From an uncultured Thermoplasmata archaeon (GTDB lineage: Archaea > Thermoplasmatota > Thermoplasmata > UBA10834): a DNA stretch of 64,000 bases. Positions 1,870 to 36,145 of this stretch are shown here, one piece after another. The stretch lies in the NCBI GenBank assembly GCA_963719945.1, contig CAVRDX010000003.1, forward strand, positions 64,001 through 128,000, read 5' to 3'. Numbering within the stretch: position 1 is the stretch's first letter; the number at the start of each line of letters is the position of its first letter. The notes under the pieces were generated by a model that saw only the letters and a list, made by a program, of their open reading frames with translations, was not told the origin of the DNA and ran no database searches. Made by a program: the position numbers and the translations under genes.

Positions 1870-2316
1870 CTAGATCCGGAAGCTGAGTCTGTCCATTATG
1901 CCGTTTTCCGTCGTGATAGTGACCGTGTGATCACCAGATGTCAGAGTCTGGTCGATGGTGATCGATATCACGCTAGACGGATCCCAAAACGACGATGTGT
2001 TTCCACTCAGCGAAAGGGTGTAATCCGTGACCACCATGCCATCCAGCATTACAGTGATATAGTTTTGGTTTAGAACCGTATTGCCGAGGTTCTTGGCATA
2101 TATCCTCACCGGATCGTTAGGCACGTTCGTGGGATCGTTGATGATCGCTATGTTCGTCAGCATCTCCTTTTCGATATTGTCGCTCTTCTGATTGATTCCA
2201 CTCGTGATGCCATATACGCCGTTGGCAGCTACTGCCACGACAGCGGACGCTACCATGATGGCTGACACGAAGAATATCAACTGTGTCGACGCACCGCTTG
2301 CGCCCATTATTCCCAC
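1870..2316 (-). CDS. arlG: Archaellum stator protein ArlG/FlaG
   Basis: N-terminal TM helix STQLIFFVSAIMVASAVV, IINDP motif, YAKNLG and TENG near the C-terminus. The true start may be the ATG at 2307. Confidence 0.9.
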   Translation of the reverse strand: MGIMGASGASTQLIFFVSAIMVASAVVAVAANGVYGITSGINQKSDNIEKEMLTNIAIINDPTNVPNDPVRIYAKNLGNTVLNQNYITVMLDGMVVTDYTLSLSGNTSSFWDPSSVISITIDQTLTSGDHTVTITTENGIMDRLSFRI

Positions 2317-2319
2317 CTC

Positions 2320-3513
2320 TCAGAGCATGATGATATCTGATATTCCATTCTCCACCACCACCTTCACGCTCGTACCGAGTCTCTCGATCACGAGCCCATT
2401 CACACTGTCTGACACGAATATCTTGCCCGTTGCGTCCACCCCCCATACCGAATCGCTGAGTCCATCATCTATTGTGCCTCTCATCGTTCCGTTCTCATAG
2501 AAGACGAGTATCTCGTCGCTGTTGTTCGCTACGAACAAGTTCCTTTCGTCGAGAGCGTAGGCACTAGCGGATATGTCCGTTGTCGATGAGAGCATGTTCG
2601 ACCCGATTATCTGAGCTCCTTCACTTCCGTCGAGTCCGTATCTGTCCATATGGTTGCTTCCGGAGCTGTTGTCAAGGACGAATATGTATCCGCCTACGGA
2701 GATGTCTATCGGGCCAGTCATCGTGCCTCCGTTGGCGATTAGTTGATCGACGAAGACGCCAGTCGATTTGTTGAATCTGTCAATATGGTCGAAGTTGTCG
2801 ATAACGTAGATGTAATCCGAATCGACTGCAAATGATGTCGGTGATGGCGCGTTCGTTCCATCCGAGATGAACACATCTATCCAGTTTCCGTCTGTGTCGA
2901 ATCTGTCAATGTGTGAAGCTTCATCTAGAACGTATAGATACTCACCGAATACCTTGACATCACTGGGCGCCACCATATGTGTGGCGTCTGTGATTGTGAA
3001 ACTGAATGTGCCAGTTAGTGTGAAAACCTCAATGCTGTTTCCGTCGAGGACATATGCGCATTCGCCCACCGATAGACTGGTCGGCGAGGAAAGTCGGGCA
3101 TCGTTCGCAACGAGGTTCCTTAGACCTACGTCAGGATCGAAATCAATCGATGGGTCGTTGACGGTGATTGTGAGTACCTCTAGTGGCAGCCAGATATCTG
3201 TCGTCTTGCCTTCGATCGCTGTGGTGAATGATGACAAGAACAGGCCGTCGATGAGGAGATTCGATTCGCTTATCTCAAGAGCGATGCTTCCAGTATTCTG
3301 TACAAGGACCTCGAGCTCATTCGTGTCGCGATAGTAATTCACGTCGATTATGCTGATCTGAGTCTGCGATCTTTCACTCATATCATCGTATCTTTCGTCC
3401 AGAGATACGGTTACTTTATCAAACGCATCGGTTACCGAGGCGTAAAGAATAGAAAAAAGAACGAGAAAGGCGGCGAAGAAAATCGCCATTGTAGCCGAGA
3501 CACTAAACCCCAT
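2320..3513 (-). CDS. arlF: Archaellum stator protein ArlF/FlaF with an inserted NHL-like beta-propeller
   Basis: MGFSVS...TM N-terminus, VQNTGS, LIDG, WLPLE and C-terminal VKVVVENG strand match ArlF. About 240 aa of six ~40-aa repeats interrupt it. Confidence 0.85.
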   Translation of the reverse strand: MGFSVSATMAIFFAAFLVLFSILYASVTDAFDKVTVSLDERYDDMSERSQTQISIIDVNYYRDTNELEVLVQNTGSIALEISESNLLIDGLFLSSFTTAIEGKTTDIWLPLEVLTITVNDPSIDFDPDVGLRNLVANDARLSSPTSLSVGECAYVLDGNSIEVFTLTGTFSFTITDATHMVAPSDVKVFGEYLYVLDEASHIDRFDTDGNWIDVFISDGTNAPSPTSFAVDSDYIYVIDNFDHIDRFNKSTGVFVDQLIANGGTMTGPIDISVGGYIFVLDNSSGSNHMDRYGLDGSEGAQIIGSNMLSSTTDISASAYALDERNLFVANNSDEILVFYENGTMRGTIDDGLSDSVWGVDATGKIFVSDSVNGLVIERLGTSVKVVVENGISDIIML

Positions 3514-4687
3514 GAAAGCCCTCCAGACTCTCCTTGAACTTCGATATATTCTGTTCGAGGGAGTTTAGCCTATCCTTGTCGACTTCGAGCCCTGCGATCT
3601 TCTGGACGAACAGGAGAGACTTCAGATGGTCGTCGGCTGACAGGCGCCAGTCTTCGACCTTCTTGTAGGGTGCGGCTTGTGGCGGGGGTAGATCCCTGAA
3701 GACATCCTCACGGACCTCTTCTTGGCCCATGTATTTCGTGATGTCTTGCATCTCACCGCGTGCGTAGGACATGATTTCTGATTTCACATCCTCGCTGATC
3801 CATCCTACGTCAACATAGTAGTCAAGGACGAGCGATATCTTGTCTCTCGTAACGCGCTCGAACAGGAATTCTATCCAGCGCATGACAAGGACGAGTGTGA
3901 GGTAATCGTGTGGTATGTATGCGAGCAACGGTTTCTTATTGTGCTTGCTCCTCGCTGCCGCACGTACCTGTCTCTCATATCTCTCGTCGGTCGATGTCTT
4001 ATCCATCGTCGGTGGAGTCTCTCTCCTTTCTCCAATAGATACAGTCCCCAAGGGCATTGTCGACGTCCCTGGCTCCCACGGGGTGGCGTCCCTACTTTTC
4101 TTTGATGCCGCGCTCCTAGCTGAAGATGGCGTTTCGATCTCTCCTTCGCCAAACGGTCTGAACTCTGGGATATCTCCGTCGAGTTCGATCGTTCCGAACG
4201 AGATCTCGTCAGCTGGTTTCTCCATCTGCTTCTCCGCCGGTTTGGGAGGAGACTGTTCCTTCGGAGGAGCTTCTTTCTCTGACATATCAATGAACGGGTT
4301 GAACTTCGCGGAGACGACTTCGTATACTGACAGGAGCTTTCTGATGTCCTGGTCCATCTGGGTGAGTTTGTCTCGGACCTTCGAGTTCTCGTTCCGCTCA
4401 TTCGTCAGAGCGGAGTCGATTCTCCCGATCTTGTCTTCGATCTCTTCCAGGCGACCAAGGAGCTCGCTGAGCTCCTTCACACCAGTAAGTCCTCCGGCAC
4501 CCGAACTATCGTCTTCGAGGTAGTCCTCCTCGTCTGTGGGCGACACTATTTCTGATCCGTCGCCCCCTTCTGCTGCGTCATCGAAAGTCTCCTCTTCCGT
4601 ATCATCGAACTCGTCCTCGAAGTCTTTCAACTTCCTACGAGCTGAGGAACCATCTTTTCCAGGTTTCTTGCGGAACAGGCCGGCCAT
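3503..4687 (-). CDS. Archaellum switch-complex protein, ArlC fused to ArlD/E
   Basis: Coiled coil ending LLSVYEVVSAKFNPF (ArlC-like) plus C-terminal WIEFL...YYVDVGWIS...LSADDHLKSLLF (ArlD/E-like). An alternative start is at 4726. Confidence 0.88.
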   Translation of the reverse strand: MAGLFRKKPGKDGSSARRKLKDFEDEFDDTEEETFDDAAEGGDGSEIVSPTDEEDYLEDDSSGAGGLTGVKELSELLGRLEEIEDKIGRIDSALTNERNENSKVRDKLTQMDQDIRKLLSVYEVVSAKFNPFIDMSEKEAPPKEQSPPKPAEKQMEKPADEISFGTIELDGDIPEFRPFGEGEIETPSSARSAASKKSRDATPWEPGTSTMPLGTVSIGERRETPPTMDKTSTDERYERQVRAAARSKHNKKPLLAYIPHDYLTLVLVMRWIEFLFERVTRDKISLVLDYYVDVGWISEDVKSEIMSYARGEMQDITKYMGQEEVREDVFRDLPPPQAAPYKKVEDWRLSADDHLKSLLFVQKIAGLEVDKDRLNSLEQNISKFKESLEGFHGV

Positions 4688-4729
4688 TTTCGATACACCT
4701 AACCCCGTGCAGTCATGGGAAAACATCTT

Positions 4730-4757
4730 CCCTCACCTCTTAGAAAAGAGGTGAGGG
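4730..4757 (-). terminator. Perfect 12-bp stem hairpin between archaellin and arlCDE (terminator, attenuator or mRNA stabiliser)
   Basis: CCCTCACCTCTT-AGAA-AAGAGGTGAGGG, 44 nt after the archaellin stop. Confidence 0.6.
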
Positions 4758-4800
4758 GGAGAAATCTCCCCAAATTGGGATTGATTGAGCTAGTGTCTCT

Positions 4801-5421
4801 CTACTTGAGCACCACTACGCTGCTAGCCTCGAGGGTCGCAGGAGCGGTTATCTCCAGGTATGTCGGCACACCGTGCTTGGGCATCAACAGGAGCGTCAGC
4901 TGTTCTTGTGGGTCGAGCTCCATTGTTATTCCCGTCGCGGTGGTGAGGTCGATTTGTACCTGGAATACATCTCCGGCGGTCATCATGACTGCAGCTGTTG
5001 CTGGGTCCATGTCTCTGAGCTCAGTTGCGGTGAACTCTGTGGCGGATGCTGCAGCTGCGTATGAGAGCGTGATTTCAGACGCTACTCCTCCGCCGATGGT
5101 CTGCGTAACCTCAATTATCGTGTTCTCGAGGTTGATCCCAGGGCTACCAGCGATCAAGGCTATCTTGATGTAGATCGTGTCGATGGCTGGAGTCGCATCT
5201 GTCGATCCCCATACGGCAAGGACCTTGAATCCACAGGCAACGTCCTGCAGAGCCTCGTCACCAGTCGACTCGGCCTGCTGTTGCAGCTTGTATGCAGTCT
5301 GGACCAAGACACCCGCTGCCACAGCGGCAACGATTATCATGGCAATGAAGATAAGAAGGGTTCCAACACCCATCTCGCCTTCCTCTTCCATTTTTCTCTT
5401 TTTCCACGCTAGTTTGTTCAT
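4801..5421 (-). CDS. arlB: Archaellin (ArlB/FlaB), copy 1
   Basis: Class III signal peptide plus GVGTLLIFIAMIIVAAVAAGVLVQTA, AGSPGINL and C-terminal PKHG motif; GGAGG RBS. Confidence 0.96.
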   Translation of the reverse strand: MNKLAWKKRKMEEEGEMGVGTLLIFIAMIIVAAVAAGVLVQTAYKLQQQAESTGDEALQDVACGFKVLAVWGSTDATPAIDTIYIKIALIAGSPGINLENTIIEVTQTIGGGVASEITLSYAAAASATEFTATELRDMDPATAAVMMTAGDVFQVQIDLTTATGITMELDPQEQLTLLLMPKHGVPTYLEITAPATLEASSVVVLK

Positions 5422-5754
5422 TGTTTCTATTCCTCCAACTTCGCATCTCTTCTCGAGTCACGTACCCGAGGGACGTTCGGCACCCTGCCGACGAGGAGAT
5501 CTTCCGAGCCGATCCTAGCTCTCCTGCCTATTGACAGGACATCGAGAGCATCCGCTACCCGATGGTTTGTCCAAAAAGCACGGTTTTTCAACGCCCGCCG
5601 TGAATCTTGTCTAGCACTGGGGCGATTACACAACTCCTGGCGACAGCCAGACCGTTCCATCCTAACTGGTCTTCTCGCCTCACCTCCGATGGCAACCGCC
5701 GCCGTGCCCTGCAGCGGGGAGTGAGAGAGATGCACCCCTCAAGGTTGTGCTTGA

Positions 5755-5782
5755 GAGGCACTATCCACAGGGCATGTAGACC
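5755..5782. repeat. 28-bp repeat copy A (reverse complement of copy B)
   Basis: + strand GAGGCACTATCCACAGGGCATGTAGACC is the exact reverse complement of 7752-7779. Confidence 0.95.
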
Positions 5783-5803
5783 TCTCTCGAGTCTACTATC
5801 CAG

Positions 5804-5865
5804 AATATATATCTTAAACATTAGTATACAAATGTCTAGAAAAATTATGAGAAGTGATTCTCATA
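5804..5865 (-). promoter_or_regulatory. Putative promoter of the arlB1-arlCDE-F-G-H-I operon with a palindromic operator
   Basis: Minus strand TTTAAGATATATATT (5818-5804) is TATA-like; palindrome TATGAGAA-GTGA-TTCTCATA at 5846-5865. Confidence 0.6.
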
Positions 5866-5890
5866 GGTGATTTGCGCATTCGTCAAATCA

Positions 5891-7612
5891 TCAGACGAGA
5901 TTCACATATCTGTAAGCCCCAAGATATGGGATTGTACAGTCCTCTATCGTAGGCTGGCCTATGCTCGGAATGAATTTCATCGAGAACGATGATTCGGCGT
6001 GAAGGTTCAGTCCTATCTCGCCGGCGTCGACGAATATTTTCACGAGTCCTCCATCCGAGAGAGAGAATGTGCTTGCGAATTCGCTATCTGGATCCCTAAG
6101 TATCTGGACAGAGAAGCTGTCAGCAGTCGCCCCGGCTGGCCCGAATTCTGCAGCATTGAATGCCAGCGTGACATCCTTCTCCCCGTCAGTGATCTCTATC
6201 ATCAGAGACGTGAACAGGATCGGCATGCTTCCAGGCACTGTCTTGACCTTGATCTCGATCATCTGGATGGTGTTCGATGGTATCACTGGTTGTGCATAGT
6301 TGTCTGCCGCATCCACAGCTACTACGGTATAGTAGTACAGGGTTCCAGACACTCCTGAGTAATCACAGTACTGGGTCGTGTTGCTGCTGACCGATGCGAT
6401 GGGGGTGGAGTTCCTCAACTCCTCGACGCTATCGAGCGCGGACATGCTGGTACTCCTGTAGATTAGGTATTCACCGATGTACGTCTCACTATCGGACGCT
6501 TCGTTCCAGTTCATCTCGACAGATTGTATATATTGCGTAGCACCAAATGCCTGCACTGCGGACGGAGCGATGGAATCCACGACTTCAGCATTGTATGTGA
6601 GCGTTCCCAATGAAACCTGGTTCCCCGCTCGGTCTTCGACTATTACATAATACGTATAGGTCCCCTCATCACTAGGGGCGTCAGAATAGCTAGACGCAGT
6701 GGAATTAAGTGCCGCAATGAGCTCCGCTCCGATCGATATGGAGATGACCCTTCGTCCATCGACCATCTCGCTAGATAGCGACCCAACCGATACGGTGCTC
6801 CTATAGAGCAGCTGCTGGTCGACGCCACTGCCCGCATCGGTGGCTGGAACCCAGAAGAGCATGACAGAATACTCATCAGGTCTCGATGTGCTCGTCATGG
6901 ATCCACCTGCGGGTATGGTCTGATCCTCATCATGACTTGCTGCATCCGTGGATGCAGAACTGTCAATCGGAGTATAGAGGGCACGGTTTCCAGCTGCGTC
7001 CACTCCGACTATTGCATACGCATATGACGTGGAATTATCGTCCCTGGCGGTATAATCCATATACTGTCTATCTGACCCGAAGCCAGTTGTCAACGTTGCC
7101 AATTCATAGGATGGATTGAGTTGATCGAGTGTCAATAATCGATTCCTTGCGATCTGTTCGTTGAACGCGGCAGGATTGGTCGGGTCATATACCGAGGTCC
7201 TGTAGATGATCTCCTCAGCCAACCCAGAGCCATAATCAATGGCGGAGGTCCAGTTCAGAACTATTCGGAGTGGTGCAACTCCGTCGTTTGAAGCAGTTGC
7301 GTTCCATAATATGCCACCAGTCGGCGGTTGATCATCTCTCGATGGCATATACCCGGAAGCGATTGAAGAATCTGCACCGTCAGGGTTCCTGTCGCCTGCG
7401 ACATTGACGACGGTAAGTCCTCCAGAGACCTCTGAAACGGCATCGTCGACAGTTCTCTGTGCCTGTTGCTGCAGCAACGCTGCAGCATAAAGTATCAATG
7501 ACGCTGCGATTGCAGCGACCAGCACCATCGCAATGAAAATGATAAGTGTACCTATACCGACATCGGCTTCTTCATCCGTCTTGATGCTCGTTCTTGCTTT
7601 TTTGAGCCCCAT
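5891..7612 (-). CDS. Large archaellin (573 aa) with three inserted fibronectin type III-like domains
   Basis: N-terminal VGIGTLIIFIAMVLVAAIAA. Three repeats of pattern W-x-x-A-x-D...YR...Y-x-Y-x(4)-D-x-A-x-N follow, then the archaellin core resumes at IEIKVKTVPGS. Confidence 0.88.
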   Translation of the reverse strand: MGLKKARTSIKTDEEADVGIGTLIIFIAMVLVAAIAASLILYAAALLQQQAQRTVDDAVSEVSGGLTVVNVAGDRNPDGADSSIASGYMPSRDDQPPTGGILWNATASNDGVAPLRIVLNWTSAIDYGSGLAEEIIYRTSVYDPTNPAAFNEQIARNRLLTLDQLNPSYELATLTTGFGSDRQYMDYTARDDNSTSYAYAIVGVDAAGNRALYTPIDSSASTDAASHDEDQTIPAGGSMTSTSRPDEYSVMLFWVPATDAGSGVDQQLLYRSTVSVGSLSSEMVDGRRVISISIGAELIAALNSTASSYSDAPSDEGTYTYYVIVEDRAGNQVSLGTLTYNAEVVDSIAPSAVQAFGATQYIQSVEMNWNEASDSETYIGEYLIYRSTSMSALDSVEELRNSTPIASVSSNTTQYCDYSGVSGTLYYYTVVAVDAADNYAQPVIPSNTIQMIEIKVKTVPGSMPILFTSLMIEITDGEKDVTLAFNAAEFGPAGATADSFSVQILRDPDSEFASTFSLSDGGLVKIFVDAGEIGLNLHAESSFSMKFIPSIGQPTIEDCTIPYLGAYRYVNLV

Positions 7613-7751
7613 CCCAGTCCTCTCCGGTGTGCGAGGGCATGGAACGTAGCGTTGTTGAGCCTAGAGCATCCGCTAACTCATGGCACCATCAGAAATTATC
7701 CCGACTTGTTGAGCCGGTAATATATTACTCGTCAGAAAGACGAGAGTCTAC

Positions 7752-7779
7752 GGTCTACATGCCCTGTGGATAGTGCCTC
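7752..7779. repeat. 28-bp repeat copy B
   Basis: GGTCTACATGCCCTGTGGATAGTGCCTC, inverted relative to 5755-5782. Confidence 0.95.
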
Positions 7780-7797
7780 GAGATGCGTTGGAGGCTA

Positions 7798-7849
7798 GTG
7801 ATTATCATGCGTTTGAAGATTATATAAGACAACAAGCCGTGATTTTCAT
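7798..7849 (-). promoter_or_regulatory. Putative promoter of the large archaellin
   Basis: TTATATAA at 7820-7827 is flanked by GTGATTATCAT (7798-7808) and GTGATTTTCAT (7839-7849). Confidence 0.55.
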
Positions 7850-7978
7850 GCAAGATAATCAGATTATTTGAATCAAAAATATCAATTGTAAGGGGTTTCT
7901 TTGGGATATTCCCAGACGCTGATATGCCCTGTTTGTCAGTCTCTCTCAATTCTCGTTGTTCGGATCAACCATCGCCGG

Positions 7979-8461
7979 TCATACTCTGTAATAATCGGCA
8001 AGGCTGGTCTCGAATCGACCGATCCGTTCCTGCACTTCACACCAGATGTTCTTGTCAACATCGATGCCCGCCAGCTCCATGACGAACATCCAGGACTTCA
8101 TATGGTCTTCCGGTGTGAGCCTCCACTCCTTCTCCTCCGTCGCAAGCGCGAGGGCATCCAAGGAGCTTTTCCTTCCGGGCCGTTTCTTGGTCACTACGAG
8201 ATTGTGGTCTATGATCTCATCGTCCAGGATCGCCTCTGCCATCTCCGGTTCGGCTTTCTTTGTGCCTTGAGATACAGATGCCAAGTACTCTGCGATGTCC
8301 TCTCCTATCCATCCTATTCTGCTATAGAAGCTGAACAATCTGGGAATGGCTTCGATGTCTATCCTGTCCATCAGGAACGACATCCATCGCATGATGATCA
8401 TGTTGGTTCTGGAATCTATGTCGAAACTCTCCAGTGCCGAGTACCGTTCTTCTGGATCCAT
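7979..8461 (-). CDS. Stand-alone ArlD/E (FlaD/FlaE) domain protein
   Basis: MRWMSFL...FYSRIGWIG...WRLTPEDHMKSWMF parallels the C-terminal domain of 3503-4687. Confidence 0.85.
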   Translation of the reverse strand: MDPEERYSALESFDIDSRTNMIIMRWMSFLMDRIDIEAIPRLFSFYSRIGWIGEDIAEYLASVSQGTKKAEPEMAEAILDDEIIDHNLVVTKKRPGRKSSLDALALATEEKEWRLTPEDHMKSWMFVMELAGIDVDKNIWCEVQERIGRFETSLADYYRV

Positions 8462-8490
8462 GCACGTTCCTCCTTTCTTGAGATCCCTCT

Positions 8491-9135
8491 TCAGGTCAGT
8501 ATCTCATATGTGTTCGACAGGACCGAAGGTGTGGTGATTAGCACATAGGTCGGTATCCCGTGCTTCGGTATCAGGAGTATCGTAGCGTCCTGCTGGGTGA
8601 CGAGGCTCATGTCCGTAGGCAGTTGTTCAGCCAGGTCGATGTGCAACAGCGCAACATCTCCCTGAGTGATTCCCACATCTGCTGCGGTCCATGCAGCGAT
8701 ATTCAAGGGATATGTGTCCCTCAGACTCGCCACATCGAAAGTGCCATCCGTGGATGCGACAGTGTAGTCTGGACATGATAGCGTCTCATCTGCCTCTCCA
8801 TTTGATATCTCGATTATCAATGTGGCCAGGTTGATCACCGGGCTGCCCGCTGTCAGCGCCACCTTCAGGTACACATCAGTGATGACCAATGCACCCGTGC
8901 CATCATCCGCCGTCATTCCATATATCGCCAACACTTTCAGACCCGTTGCTACTTCCTGCAATGCCTGGTCGCCTGTCGCTTCTGCCTGTTGCTGTAGTTC
9001 GTATGCGGTTTGGACTAGGACGCCAGCTGCTACGGCGGCGACTAATATCATCGCTATGAAGATCAACAACGTGCCGACCCCCATCTCCCCTTCCTCACCC
9101 ATACGAATCCTTCTGGGCTTGGGTATCTTTTCCAT
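8491..9135 (-). CDS. arlB: Archaellin (ArlB/FlaB), copy 3
   Basis: GVGTLLIFIAMILVAAVAAGVLVQTA, AGSPVINL and PKHG motifs; GAGGAGG RBS. Confidence 0.96.
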   Translation of the reverse strand: MEKIPKPRRIRMGEEGEMGVGTLLIFIAMILVAAVAAGVLVQTAYELQQQAEATGDQALQEVATGLKVLAIYGMTADDGTGALVITDVYLKVALTAGSPVINLATLIIEISNGEADETLSCPDYTVASTDGTFDVASLRDTYPLNIAAWTAADVGITQGDVALLHIDLAEQLPTDMSLVTQQDATILLIPKHGIPTYVLITTPSVLSNTYEILT

Positions 9136-15695: not shown

Positions 15696-16106
15696 ATGAA
15701 GTTCGTCAAGCTCTCCCAGTCCGAGTTCGAGGAGATACGGAAGCTGTACGAAGGTGTCATGTCTCAGGCATGCCACGGGCTGTTCTTCAGAGAAGGCATG
15801 ATCCTGGGAGAGGAGATCTCCAAGATCGCACTTCAGGAGCCTGAGAAATACTTCGAGATATGTGGCAATCTGCTCAGGGCGCGAGGCTGGATCGATAATA
15901 TCGTCTTCGAGGAATCCACGGCGACAGCAGAAGGGTCCGTCGAGGCGACCCAATCGGATATCCCGACTTGTCACAGGCTGAGAGGTATTGTAAAGAAGGT
16001 ATACGAGGCCAAGACTCACAGGAGATTCCACTGCGACGAGATCGAGTGTGTGAGCAAAGGCGACAAGCACTGCGTTTTCAAGGTAGAACAGGTAGGAGGG
16101 GACTGA
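15696..16106 (+). CDS. Stand-alone V4R-domain protein
   Basis: PTCHRLRG...EIECVSKGDKHCVF is the V4R C/E/C/C pattern. Confidence 0.85.
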   Translation: MKFVKLSQSEFEEIRKLYEGVMSQACHGLFFREGMILGEEISKIALQEPEKYFEICGNLLRARGWIDNIVFEESTATAEGSVEATQSDIPTCHRLRGIVKKVYEAKTHRRFHCDEIECVSKGDKHCVFKVEQVGGD

Positions 16107-16107
16107 A

Positions 16108-16455
16108 TTGGAGCTTAAGCCAGCCCTCAGGGCGTTGAGGGAGAGTTGCGGGGCAATAGCATCTGCGATCATAAGCAGGGACGGACTCGTCATTGCAGCT
16201 GATCTGCCCGATGGTGTATCTATGGACACATTCGCTATCATGTGCGCTACTCTCATCGGCGCGGCGTCTACTGCCAACTCTGAGCTGAGAGTCGGCACGC
16301 CGCAGTCCGTGGTGGTCGAGTGCGAGGATGCGAAGATGGTCGTCGTCGGCGCCGGAAGAAAGGCTCTCGTCGTCACAGTCATCTCCATAAAGAGCGACGA
16401 ATCGGTCGCGAAGAAGGAGCTGCTGAAGCTAGCGGATTCCATCAAGATGATCTGA
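16108..16455 (+). CDS. Roadblock/LC7 (MglB-like) protein
   Basis: SAIISRDGLVIAA, FAIMCATLIGAA; ~115 aa. Confidence 0.9.
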   Translation: MELKPALRALRESCGAIASAIISRDGLVIAADLPDGVSMDTFAIMCATLIGAASTANSELRVGTPQSVVVECEDAKMVVVGAGRKALVVTVISIKSDESVAKKELLKLADSIKMI

Positions 16456-33920: not shown

Positions 33921-34543
33921 CTCGCCACCTTCTCCTCCAACCTGACGCCATTGACGAATACAGATGCGAAACCTCTGATGTAGATCTCATCCCCGACGGG
34001 GTCAAGGTCATCTCCTCCGAGCATGTACCGTGTGATGAAGTATCCCTGGACCATGCCCATCAGTGCCCTTGCAGCCACCTCTGGCTGAATCTCACGTATC
34101 CTTCCTTCTTCCACGAGCCTTGTCATCATCGCCGTGAGGAATTCGATTCCTCTTTGCATGACGGTCTCGGACAACATCTTCCTACTTTTCGGATATCGCC
34201 ATGCATCTCCAAGAACGACCATGAACAGATGTCTGTTCTTCTTAAGGATTGAGAGCACCGTTCTCACGTTGTGCACTATCAGCTCTTCGAGTGGTGCATC
34301 GTCGTCGAACCTCACATGCCCGGCGATATCATTCAGGACCGACTTCTCTGCAATGACTGCGGAGAAGAGTGCATTCTTCGACTTGAACTGCCTGAAGACC
34401 GTCACCTCATTGACTCCTGCACGTTCGGCGATCTCCTTGGTGGTGGCTGCAGTGAATCCTTTGCTTCCGAACACCTCCAATGCAGTCTTGAGTATCCTCT
34501 CCCTTGAATCTGTGGATCTCAAGCCTTTCGTTCGCCCTCTCAT
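33917..34543 (-). CDS. TetR/AcrR family regulator
   Basis: GFTAATTKEIAERAGVNEVTVFRQFKSK; heads the ABC-2 operon. Confidence 0.93.
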   Translation of the reverse strand: MRGRTKGLRSTDSRERILKTALEVFGSKGFTAATTKEIAERAGVNEVTVFRQFKSKNALFSAVIAEKSVLNDIAGHVRFDDDAPLEELIVHNVRTVLSILKKNRHLFMVVLGDAWRYPKSRKMLSETVMQRGIEFLTAMMTRLVEEGRIREIQPEVAARALMGMVQGYFITRYMLGGDDLDPVGDEIYIRGFASVFVNGVRLEEKVAR

Positions 34544-34550
34544 CAATGAG

Positions 34551-34568
34551 TGCAAGTACTTACTTGCA
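34551..34568. promoter_or_regulatory. Probable TetR operator
   Basis: Perfect inverted repeat TGCAAGTA-CT-TACTTGCA immediately upstream of the tetR ATG. Confidence 0.7.
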
Positions 34569-34703
34569 TATATTCGTTACTGACCGCCATGTCATATTCG
34601 ATACGACAGTCGACTCGAATGTATGGGCTGGACTGGTTATCATCAGTGAGATTCCTGGTCTGAACGATTATATAGACAAGGGATTATTTCCAAAGCGTTC
34701 TGA

Positions 34704-35216
34704 ATGCCTTCAAGAAAGTACATACTCAAGCTTTGTCTCCTCGGTGACGGTGCCGTCGGGAAGACGAGCCTTGTCCGAAGATATGTTCATGATTCTTTCG
34801 ATGACAAGTATCTGATATCTTTCGGAACCAAAGTGTCCAAGAAGACCGTCACGGTCTCGGAGGCGGACGCCGATCTTATGATATGGGATATTCTGGGACA
34901 AAAGACCCACGAATCCCTCCATTCCGCGTACTACAGAGGCGCCGCAGGCGCCTTCGCTGTATGTGATTTCACCCGAAAGCCGACGGTCGAATCCGTGGCC
35001 ACTTGGATCGACAGCCTCAGAGAGGTTGTGGGCGACATCCCGATCATAATGCTCGCCAACAAGTGCGACCTCCCGAAGGCTTTCCCGTCTGAAGAGATAC
35101 GTTCCATTGCATCATCGAAAGGCTGTGATATGATGGAAACGAGCGCCAAGACGGGAGAGAACGTCGAAGAGGCCTTCCTAGCATTGACCCGGAAGATCCT
35201 GGAGGCGAATCCATGA
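34704..35216 (+). CDS. Small Ras-superfamily (Rab-like) GTPase
   Basis: G1 GDGAVGKT, G3 WDILGQ, YYRGA, G4 NKCD and G5 TSAK; 170 aa. Confidence 0.93.
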   Translation: MPSRKYILKLCLLGDGAVGKTSLVRRYVHDSFDDKYLISFGTKVSKKTVTVSEADADLMIWDILGQKTHESLHSAYYRGAAGAFAVCDFTRKPTVESVATWIDSLREVVGDIPIIMLANKCDLPKAFPSEEIRSIASSKGCDMMETSAKTGENVEEAFLALTRKILEANP

Positions 35217-36145
35217 AGCAGATCCCGTTCTTCGTCATGCCCGGGATCGCACTCTCCCACCTGCGAGAGGAGCTCGAGATCGTCGAAGGTGAGCACCGGG
35301 CTAAACTGATGCTGTACCGATACGGTCAGAGGTGCGGTCGAGCATTGGTCCAGAGCTATGCCATGACTTGTTCAGGTTTGCTCGAGGTCAGGGCTGTGAT
35401 CGAGCCCATATGGATGGAAGCAGGTCTGAGCCGGATAAAGGTCGATTCCGCGGAGGAGTCCGACATGGTCGTGAGCCTCGAGGATTCGATAGAGGCGAAG
35501 GAGGGCAAGACATGCGAGTTCGCGAGAGGTTATCTGTCCGGCATCGTCTCCGAGCTGACCGGCAAACGGTTCGAGGTCGATGAGGTGGAATGCGCGAGCA
35601 CGGGATACATCGCATGTGTTCTCCAGGCCTACGAGGTCGTTGACAACCTCAAGCCTACCAAACAGGTCGAGGCGGAGACCGCGCGGAAGTACAATCTGGA
35701 ATCCGGCTATTCATATCTGATAAAGGAAGAGATACCTGACCAGGCGTTCGACATATTCGTCGACTCTGCAAAGCATGGCGTCCCGTGCCTTTGTGTCACG
35801 CGTGAATACCCTGAGAAGGTGAAGGAGCGGTGGGATCTGAAAGGTACCCCATTCCTTTGGTTGTCGATGGATCAGGAGAAGACATATTCCAGGGAGCCTT
35901 CGAACCTGGCTCTACTCTACTCTGACATGAAGACGTTCATCACGGAAAACAGCAACTGCGCGGTCCTCCTGTCCGGCATCGAATATCTGATCTCACAGAA
36001 CGGTTTCCAGAAGGTCCTGAAACTGCTGCAGCATCTGAACGACAAGATCGCAGTTTCAGATTCCACACTCTTCGTCCCGATAAGTCCGTTGACCGTTTCG
36101 GAACCGGAGTTGAAGATGCTCGAGAAAGAGATGAGGTCCTTCTAG
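35213..36145 (+). CDS. V4R domain fused to a DUF835 (degenerate KaiC-like) domain
   Basis: N-terminal CEFARGY...EVECASTGYIAC and C-terminal LCVTREYP, FLWLS, GIEYLISQNGF, LEKE; ATGA overlap with the GTPase gene. Confidence 0.85.
   Translation: MKQIPFFVMPGIALSHLREELEIVEGEHRAKLMLYRYGQRCGRALVQSYAMTCSGLLEVRAVIEPIWMEAGLSRIKVDSAEESDMVVSLEDSIEAKEGKTCEFARGYLSGIVSELTGKRFEVDEVECASTGYIACVLQAYEVVDNLKPTKQVEAETARKYNLESGYSYLIKEEIPDQAFDIFVDSAKHGVPCLCVTREYPEKVKERWDLKGTPFLWLSMDQEKTYSREPSNLALLYSDMKTFITENSNCAVLLSGIEYLISQNGFQKVLKLLQHLNDKIAVSDSTLFVPISPLTVSEPELKMLEKEMRSF

Follow-up and report, generated by a model that had tools for sequence, protein, structure and literature searches.

A 64,000-nucleotide (nt) stretch of DNA from an uncultured Thermoplasmata archaeon (GenBank assembly GCA_963719945.1, contig CAVRDX010000003.1, positions 64,001 to 128,000; hereafter "the window") carries a gene for a Rab-like small GTPase, followed by an overlapping gene for a protein made of a V4R domain and a DUF835 domain. 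This gene pair very probably specifies an undescribed signalling module. With a probability of about 0.6, we read it from sequences and predicted structures as the core of a signalling module that does not use a histidine kinase, in which the Rab-like GTPase would be the switch and the V4R-DUF835 protein, a V4R domain fused to a pseudo-KaiC domain, its dedicated partner, working by the mechanism proposed below. The linkage of the two genes is real and conserved throughout the phylum. We know of no partners or functions for archaeal Ras/Rab-like GTPases outside the Asgard archaea. The 2014 census of these proteins found the archaeal Rup group to have no conserved neighbours (PMC4316618), and the module is apparently undescribed: we found no description of it in the literature that we searched (DUF835; V4R with a small GTPase; V4R with Roadblock and GTPase; the Rup census; studies of Asgard Rab, Roadblock, TRAPPC3 and Arf proteins), and a mention in the 2017 KaiC paper (mBio 8:e01959-17) is possible.

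The source genome is 1.78 Mb long and 87% complete; its relatives are metagenome-assembled genomes (MAGs), for example UBA10834 and RBG_13_57_23, and all matches in a single-protein scan were uncultured Thermoplasmata MAGs. We searched for the V4R-DUF835 protein in 300 genomes of the class and 400 of the phylum, and scanned open reading frames (ORFs) in 85 loci, of which 30 belong to the same family, 35 to other families of the class and 20 to other classes. Loci, families, genomes and contigs are labelled below with L, f, G and C, respectively, and G000 is the source genome. A same-strand Rab-like GTPase gene lies within about 0.5 kb of 78 of the 86 full-length V4R-DUF835 genes that were assessed, the nearest one being upstream in 70 of these pairs and downstream in 8. 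The genes outside the 78 comprise one start-call artefact of our script (L030), two whose GTPase gene is cut by a contig end (L034, L071), one that itself abuts a contig end and is not assessable (L060), one natural fusion of the GTPase with V4R-DUF835 (L084), and three that truly have no GTPase gene (L054, L056, L058). The genomes that hold these last three genes each have a further V4R-DUF835 copy, either linked or fused to a GTPase; two of the three genes lie divergently beside a KaiC-like ATPase gene. The earlier note on this DNA, made from its sequence alone, had allowed that the pairing might not be conserved; it is conserved, far beyond the family.

In the source genome the two genes share the ATGA of ...ccATGAag..., in which the start of the V4R-DUF835 gene is the stop of the GTPase gene, an overlap, already pointed out in the note, that indicates translational coupling. 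In 40 of the 70 upstream pairs the GTPase stop overlaps the partner's start; the overlap measures 4 nt in 25 pairs, 1 nt in 10 pairs, 8 nt in 4 pairs and 11 nt in one pair. The linkage also outlasts rearrangement: the two genes have swapped places in L098-L102, L085 and L086 carry a duplicated module, and a further, long GTPase gene is present in f9, f18, f22 and f24. All-against-all clustering of the neighbours gave no third universally linked gene; the TetR and ABC-transporter genes that precede the pair, like the zinc-ribbon and membrane-protein genes that come after it, represent lineage-specific synteny. In the L084 fusion a single ORF of 527 amino acids (aa) matches Pfam Ras (64.6 bits) and DUF835 (104.6 bits), has a V4R-like middle and aligns with V4R-DUF835 over its full length. 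A HMMER search with the fusion protein against 1.84 billion representatives gave no second fusion cluster, the candidates with several matching stretches being tandem-Ras or seven-transmembrane (7TM)-DUF835 proteins, and a search for longer fused relatives gave no further GTPase fusion, returning only tRNA-synthetase-like giants that end in DUF835. Frequent overlap, linkage that persists despite inversions and duplications and across the divergence of a whole phylum, and natural fusion are classic signatures of interacting partners, and they make it improbable that the two genes are merely co-regulated (by shared stress induction, for example) while their products have no physical or regulatory interaction.

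The GTPase belongs to the Ras superfamily: it has G1-G5 motifs in a single G domain and matches Pfam Ras at 8.2e-39 (133 bits, cut-off 21.6; Pfam matches were judged throughout against the curated gathering cut-offs). The earlier note had listed G1 and G3-G5 motifs, LMIWD, YYRGA and the catalytic Gln, and direct reading finds them all, conserved in the 33 orthologues that we aligned. G1 is GDGAVGKT (residues 14-21, 34743-34766), G3 is WDILGQ (residues 61-66, with DILGQ at 34887-34901) within LMIWDILGQ, YYRGA occupies residues 76-80, G4 is NKCD (residues 119-122, 35058-35069) and G5 is SAK (residues 147-149, 35142-35150); G1, D62, G65, Q66, N119, K120, D122, S147 and A148 are invariant in the 33 proteins. 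The note was also correct in seeing a Ser in place of the usual G2 Thr, as S39 (34818-34820, in YLISFG) aligns with the switch-I Thr of Rab1a. Position 39 is Ser in 10 of the 33 orthologues, which are confined to the GTPase's own family and order, and is Thr in distant orthologues and in all paralogues; we therefore regard Ser39 as a local, conservative replacement rather than a novel type of G2. The C-terminus, ...RKILEANP, has no Cys among its last four residues, nor does that of any of the 33 orthologues, and no CAAX or CC motif was found in them, so that the prenylatable C-terminal Cys motif of the Rab family proper (CC, CXC or CAAX) is absent, again as the note had it.

The description of this GTPase as Rab-like holds as well: its top 60 matches among solved structures are all Rabs (Rab1a at 3.5e-30, Rab21, a Thorarchaeota Rab at 2.4e-29, then Rab2, Rab8 and Rab11). 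Pereira-Leal and Seabra are said to have defined in 2000 the Rab motifs RabF1-F5 as IGVDF, KLQIW, RFrsiT, YYRGA and LVYDIT; by direct reading YYRGA is matched in full and xxxIW and xVxDxT in part, and switch I (FGTKV) and switch II (HESLHS) do not match. Since the G3 Asp is kept, a lipidation motif is lacking and the Rab-specific motifs are partial, we call the protein Rab-like (Rup/RasL-type) and not a Rab. Assignment to the MglA family, in which Thr replaces the G3 Asp and the gene is coupled to an adjacent mglB (Roadblock) gene (PMC4316618, PMC3000849), was ruled out, because D62 is invariant and no Roadblock gene is adjacent in the source genome.

Five Ras-like GTPases are encoded in the source genome, and only the one described here neighbours a DUF835 gene; a maximum-likelihood tree separates the GTPases encoded in the operons of most families from the other four. 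In f9, f18, f22 and f24 (L059-L077) a second Rab-like GTPase of about 273 aa is encoded directly 5' of the pair. We considered whether this long GTPase is Rag-like, with a C-terminal Roadblock domain, and ruled this out, as its C-terminal extension folds as a four-helix bundle with a predicted local distance difference test score (pLDDT) of about 90. The source genome retains this long GTPase as a 302-aa protein of about 40% identity, encoded at a locus not linked to the pair (C1:778671-779579; L019:7672-8580). Another of its Rab-like paralogues (181 aa) is followed after 49 nt by a gene whose 1426-aa product contains a bacterial Ig (Big_9) domain (G000 C1:302805-307679; L016:6806-11680).

Pfam confirms both halves of the partner protein, V4R at residues 86-137 (2.9e-12, 46.9 bits, cut-off 31) and DUF835 (PF05763) at residues 176-307 (1.4e-28, 99.9 bits, cut-off 33.1). 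An AlphaFold2 model built from 41 orthologues has a pLDDT of 89.7 and a predicted template-modelling score (pTM) of 0.75. Residues 1-144 of this model superpose with VIA-align on PoxR (Z 17.3), Bet3 (Z 14.6), the Methanocaldococcus jannaschii V4R protein MJ1460 (Z 14.1) and Thor-TRAPPC3 (Z 13.4); Foldseek was also run. Thus Pfam and the two-layer alpha/beta fold (Z 14-17 to PoxR, Bet3 and MJ1460 over 130-143 residues) agree on a V4R domain (PF02830) of the Bet3/TRAPPC3 superfamily. This domain has a candidate zinc or redox site that consists of C101 (35513-35515), E124 (35582-35584), C127 (35591-35593) and C135 (35615-35617), conserved in 33, 37, 33 and 33 of the 41 orthologues, respectively. 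The Cys/Glu/Cys/Cys arrangement also matches the Zn site of MopR. Its cysteines are spaced 26 and 8 residues apart, as are C206, C232 and C240 of MsvR, which are conserved, redox-relevant V4R cysteines (PMC3729527), and Thor-TRAPPC3 binds Zn (PMC10933270).

Residues 157-310 superpose over 139-149 residues on FlaH/ArlH (Z 13.9 and 13.5), the KaiC-like protein PH0284 (Z 13.2) and KaiC (Z 12.0), scores that are statistically tied, within about 1-2 Z. The DUF835 domain therefore has the RecA-like fold of the KaiC/RecA superfamily. A regular-expression search found the Walker A motif GxxxxGK[ST] in none of the 41 orthologues, and the P-loop position of the partner reads EEIPDQ. A RecA-like fold without Walker A makes the domain a pseudo-ATPase, in agreement with the name "DUF835 (iKaiC)" used in PMC5847659 and with the note's description of a degenerate KaiC-like domain.

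Other neighbourhoods suggest what the two domains of the partner might do. The source genome has a tricistron that encodes a V4R protein (138 aa), a KaiC-like ATPase (224 aa) and a DUF835 protein (169 aa) in genes that abut or are 8 nt apart (C4:170918-172527; L145:2419-4028); we find it kept at 15 loci from five families, and it appears to amount to a "split" V4R-DUF835 that works with a true KaiC-like ATPase. Counted apart from the GTPase pair, two loci of the source genome have DUF835 genes beside KaiC-like ATPase genes, and elsewhere DUF835 is the C-terminal output domain of 7TM and REC sensors. Since V4R and DUF835 also pair with a KaiC-like ATPase, and DUF835 stands behind sensors, the simplest reading is that V4R is the input, DUF835 the docking or output part and the nucleoside triphosphatase (NTPase), be it a KaiC-like ATPase or a Rab-like GTPase, the switch. 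DUF835 also stands at the end of larger proteins. Proteins of about 1400 aa with class-I tRNA-synthetase and anticodon-binding Pfam domains end in DUF835 in several families of the class (G000 C1:497634-498281, P0241, P0242), and at G000 C1:525346-532175 two KaiC-like ATPase genes lie directly 5' of the gene for a 1638-aa protein that ends in DUF835.

We propose the following mechanism. The GTPase and the V4R-DUF835 protein would bind each other, and the V4R domain may sense a small hydrophobic ligand, zinc or redox state. Sensing would be coupled to the nucleotide state of the GTPase, with V4R-DUF835 serving as regulator of the GTPase or as an effector that depends on GTP. The pseudo-KaiC domain would form the docking or output end, and would probably contact KaiC-like ATPases. 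Finally, a solo V4R protein and a Roadblock protein, encoded by a bicistron 18 kb away in the window, could be accessory regulators, the Roadblock protein perhaps being MglB-like.

The inclusion of these accessory proteins follows the earlier note, which had drawn the V4R-Roadblock pair into one circuit with the GTPase and its partner. The bicistron is real, and operons in other lineages support its place in the circuit. Three loci of f55, in a sister class, have the operon GTPase > V4R-DUF835 > solo V4R > Roadblock (L088, L091, L094). A solo V4R gene also follows the pair in f52 of that class (L092, L093, L095), where the next gene, compared in L095 alone, is weakly Roadblock-like, and directly follows it in L085 and L086 (f37) and L087 (f71), families that likewise lie outside the class of the source genome. 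The window's Roadblock protein is 36% identical to the one encoded in the L094 operon (60.8 bits, E 4e-18), and the other Roadblock protein of the source genome shows 29% identity to the f55 operon Roadblock (47.4 bits). The f55 and f52 operons and the similarity of the Roadblock proteins support, by comparison and short of proof, a place for the bicistron in the circuit.

A number of observations weigh against the mechanism that we propose. The fusion is a single cluster among the 1.84 billion representatives; its source is a MAG, and the catalytic Gln has been lost from the GTPase domain of the fusion protein. The Cys site is absent in 8 of the 41 partner orthologues, so sensing through this site cannot be universal. 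Support for the basal node that unites the operon GTPases is weak (50/77), and this node leaves out the operon GTPases of f13, f16 and f28. In addition, the distance of 18 kb between the V4R-Roadblock genes and the pair in the source genome tells against a common circuit, and the four other GTPases of that genome could be the clients of the V4R and Roadblock proteins.

The folds of the parts raise the question of whether V4R-DUF835, the solo V4R protein and the Roadblock protein together form a nucleotide-exchange complex for the Rab-like GTPase, partly homologous to the transport protein particle (TRAPP) and acting on a GTPase located on membranes. Bet3/TRAPPC3 has the V4R fold, and the Roadblock protein could approximate the longin subunits; descent of Bet3 from a V4R ancestor is an established proposal (PMC2253512). 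The partner's V4R domain superposes not only on Bet3/TRAPPC3 (over 142 residues) and Thor-TRAPPC3 but also on 3cue_B, a Bet3-fold subunit of the Ypt1-activating TRAPP subassembly (Z 12.2), Rab1a, Rab21 and Thor-Rab are the nearest solved relatives of the GTPase, and a Roadblock gene stands in the same operon in f55, the only family with this linkage, as does a weakly Roadblock-like gene in f52. The best structural match of the V4R domain is nonetheless a bacterial ligand sensor, PoxR, and not Bet3; moreover, the Rab-binding surface of TRAPP is mainly its longin pair (PMC10933270), and no longin gene is linked at any locus examined. The GTPase has no lipid anchor motif, and function does not follow from similarity of fold. 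We consider such an exchange complex unlikely. It is quite doubtful that the four-part module is a working GTPase-exchange machine built from the folds of eukaryotic TRAPP/Ragulator in the Thermoplasmatota, outside the Asgard archaea; if it were, the partnership of a Rab-type GTPase with a Bet3-fold protein would predate, and be independent of, eukaryogenesis.

A role in motility, in which the DUF835 domain would dock on ArlH and the module would switch the archaellum motor, was offered in the earlier note as a speculation and does not hold up. In its favour, the window contains an arl operon some 25 kb upstream of the pair, with archaellin genes (about 1882-9090) and, at 1192-1815, a weak match to the KaiC family that is ArlH-like (the che genes are on a different contig). 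Archaellin genes, in the family genomes that have them, share a contig with the pair at a distance of 21-27 kb; this amounts to conserved synteny rather than an operon. FlaH/ArlH are also the top-scoring structural neighbours of the DUF835 domain, but ArlH is tied within 1 Z with non-motility KaiC-like ATPases. The distribution of the genes argues against a dedicated link, as most genomes that hold the pair gave no archaellin match: the V4R-DUF835 protein is present in 39 of 39 family genomes (as a full-length orthologue in 38), archaellin genes in 12 of the 39, and G040, assembled as one contig and 98% complete, carries the pair and gave no archaellin match. The same is true of the sampled genomes of f9 (0 of 13), f26 (0 of 4, all 99% complete), f18, f22, f24 and f13, which have the pair and gave no archaellin match. 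In one genome of f28 (L080, G242:C29:2800-10800) an archaellin-family gene stands 1.4 kb from a divergent GTPase/V4R-DUF835 pair and about 0.9 kb from its GTPase gene, to which it is divergent; this adjacency is not kept in the two other genomes of the genus. A module dedicated to archaellum regulation is thus not supported, archaellum control as its general function is already contradicted, and we regard the docking of DUF835 on ArlH to switch the motor as extremely unlikely.

The GTPase switch with its V4R::pseudo-KaiC partner resembles several known systems in part. Like MglA-MglB and the actinobacterial conservon CvnA-D, which are prokaryotic systems with Ras-superfamily GTPases, it has a small GTPase that shares an operon with one or more dedicated, non-enzymatic partners. 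The four parts of the f55 operon (sensor protein, V4R, Roadblock, GTPase) are like CvnA (sensor), CvnB (Roadblock), CvnC and CvnD (GTPase) of the conservon, whose composition is given in PMC4316618. It differs from these systems in that its GTPase is not of the MglA type but keeps the G3 Asp and is Rab/Rup-like, its sensor is a soluble V4R::pseudo-KaiC protein instead of a membrane histidine kinase, and its Roadblock gene is unlinked in the source genome. With the eukaryotic and Asgard Rab and TRAPP proteins it shares a Rab-like G domain, a partner of the Bet3/TRAPPC3/V4R fold and a Roadblock protein, but it has no linked longin subunit and no prenylation motif, and its V4R domain is fused to a pseudo-KaiC domain. 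The GTPase genes of the Asgard archaeon MK-D1 generally do not share operons with Roadblock, longin or TRAPPC3 genes, so that GTPases are hard to match to their regulators there (PMC10933270), whereas linkage of GTPase and partner is near-obligatory in the module.

Two further comparisons concern the partner protein. Makarova, Galperin and Koonin (2017), as represented in PMC5847659, describe archaeal KaiC-like "signal transduction hub" proteins with iKaiC (DUF835) output domains. Such proteins likewise carry DUF835 on sensor inputs (REC, PAS and 7TM in their case, V4R in the module); the difference is that the partner NTPase in the module is a GTPase of the Ras superfamily. PoxR, MopR and DmpR, which respond to phenols and have a Zn site, and MsvR, with its redox-sensitive Cys, share with the partner the V4R fold and a near-identical Cys/Glu/Cys/Cys spacing, and differ in having an AAA+ or helix-turn-helix transcription domain as the output where the module has a pseudo-KaiC domain and a GTPase partner.

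These comparisons indicate why the pair merits attention. The genome layout itself identifies the partner of an archaeal GTPase, and in some lineages the accessory proteins too, and it defines a set of two to four proteins that is open to direct expression and testing. The module connects the small GTPases with the KaiC/iKaiC "hub" proteins, which have been separate subjects in work on archaeal signalling, and it is a prokaryotic case of a Bet3-fold protein that is genetically coupled to a Rab-like GTPase.

Table 1. Features of the window that belong, or may belong, to the GTPase module; positions are those of the window.
Feature	Position (strand)	Basis
Probable archaeal promoter of the operon	34661..34675 (+)	BRE-like element and TATA box; block near-invariant in 13 family loci
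Rab-like small GTPase, 170 aa	34704..35216 (+)	Pfam Ras
ATGA start/stop overlap	35213..35216 (+)	Direct sequence reading
V4R-DUF835 protein, 310 aa	35213..36145 (+)	Pfam V4R and DUF835
V4R domain, residues 1-144	35213..35644 (+)	AlphaFold2 model, structural superposition, Pfam
DUF835 domain, residues 157-310	35681..36145 (+)	Pfam, structural superposition
Zinc-ribbon protein (DUF5817-like), 150 aa	36179..36631 (+)	Sub-cut-off Pfam match
Solo V4R protein, 136 aa; gene 1 of the V4R-Roadblock bicistron; candidate accessory subunit	15696..16106 (+)	Pfam V4R 4e-11, above cut-off
Roadblock/LC7 protein, 115 aa; candidate MglB-like GTPase regulator	16108..16455 (+)	Pfam Robl_LC7 1.6e-11, above cut-off

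The sequence upstream of the GTPase gene contains TGAACGATTATATAG, which is made up of GAACG, resembling a B recognition element (BRE), and the TATA box TTATATA (34668-34674). This block stands out from the remaining intergenic region, which is variable among the aligned family loci, and its sequence makes it the probable promoter of the operon; it ends 29 nt 5' of the GTPase ATG, which implies a leaderless transcript or one with a very short leader. The zinc-ribbon gene begins 33 nt past the V4R-DUF835 gene, behind a GGTGG box; no T-tract is found between these two genes, and a T-rich run follows the zinc-ribbon stop. The short gap, the GGTGG box and the T-rich stretch after the stop suggest that the zinc-ribbon gene is probably co-transcribed with the pair. 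Its product matches Pfam DUF5817 at 2.4e-6, below the cut-off, and its look-alikes in the atlas are Thermoplasmatota DUF5817 clusters. Membership of this protein in the module is doubtful: its gene adjoins the pair in only part of the class, and in L050 (f33) an arginine decarboxylase gene, homologues of which are present at seven other loci of the group, lies between the pair and the zinc-ribbon gene.

Lastly, the region upstream of the promoter (34540-34575) holds a family-conserved inverted repeat, GCAAGTA-N2-TACTTGC (34552-34567), between a TATA-like ATATAT and the conserved ATG of the divergent TetR gene. The repeat is probably the TetR operator, and the true TetR start is probably this conserved ATG (34541-34543, minus strand) and not the TTG at 34555.

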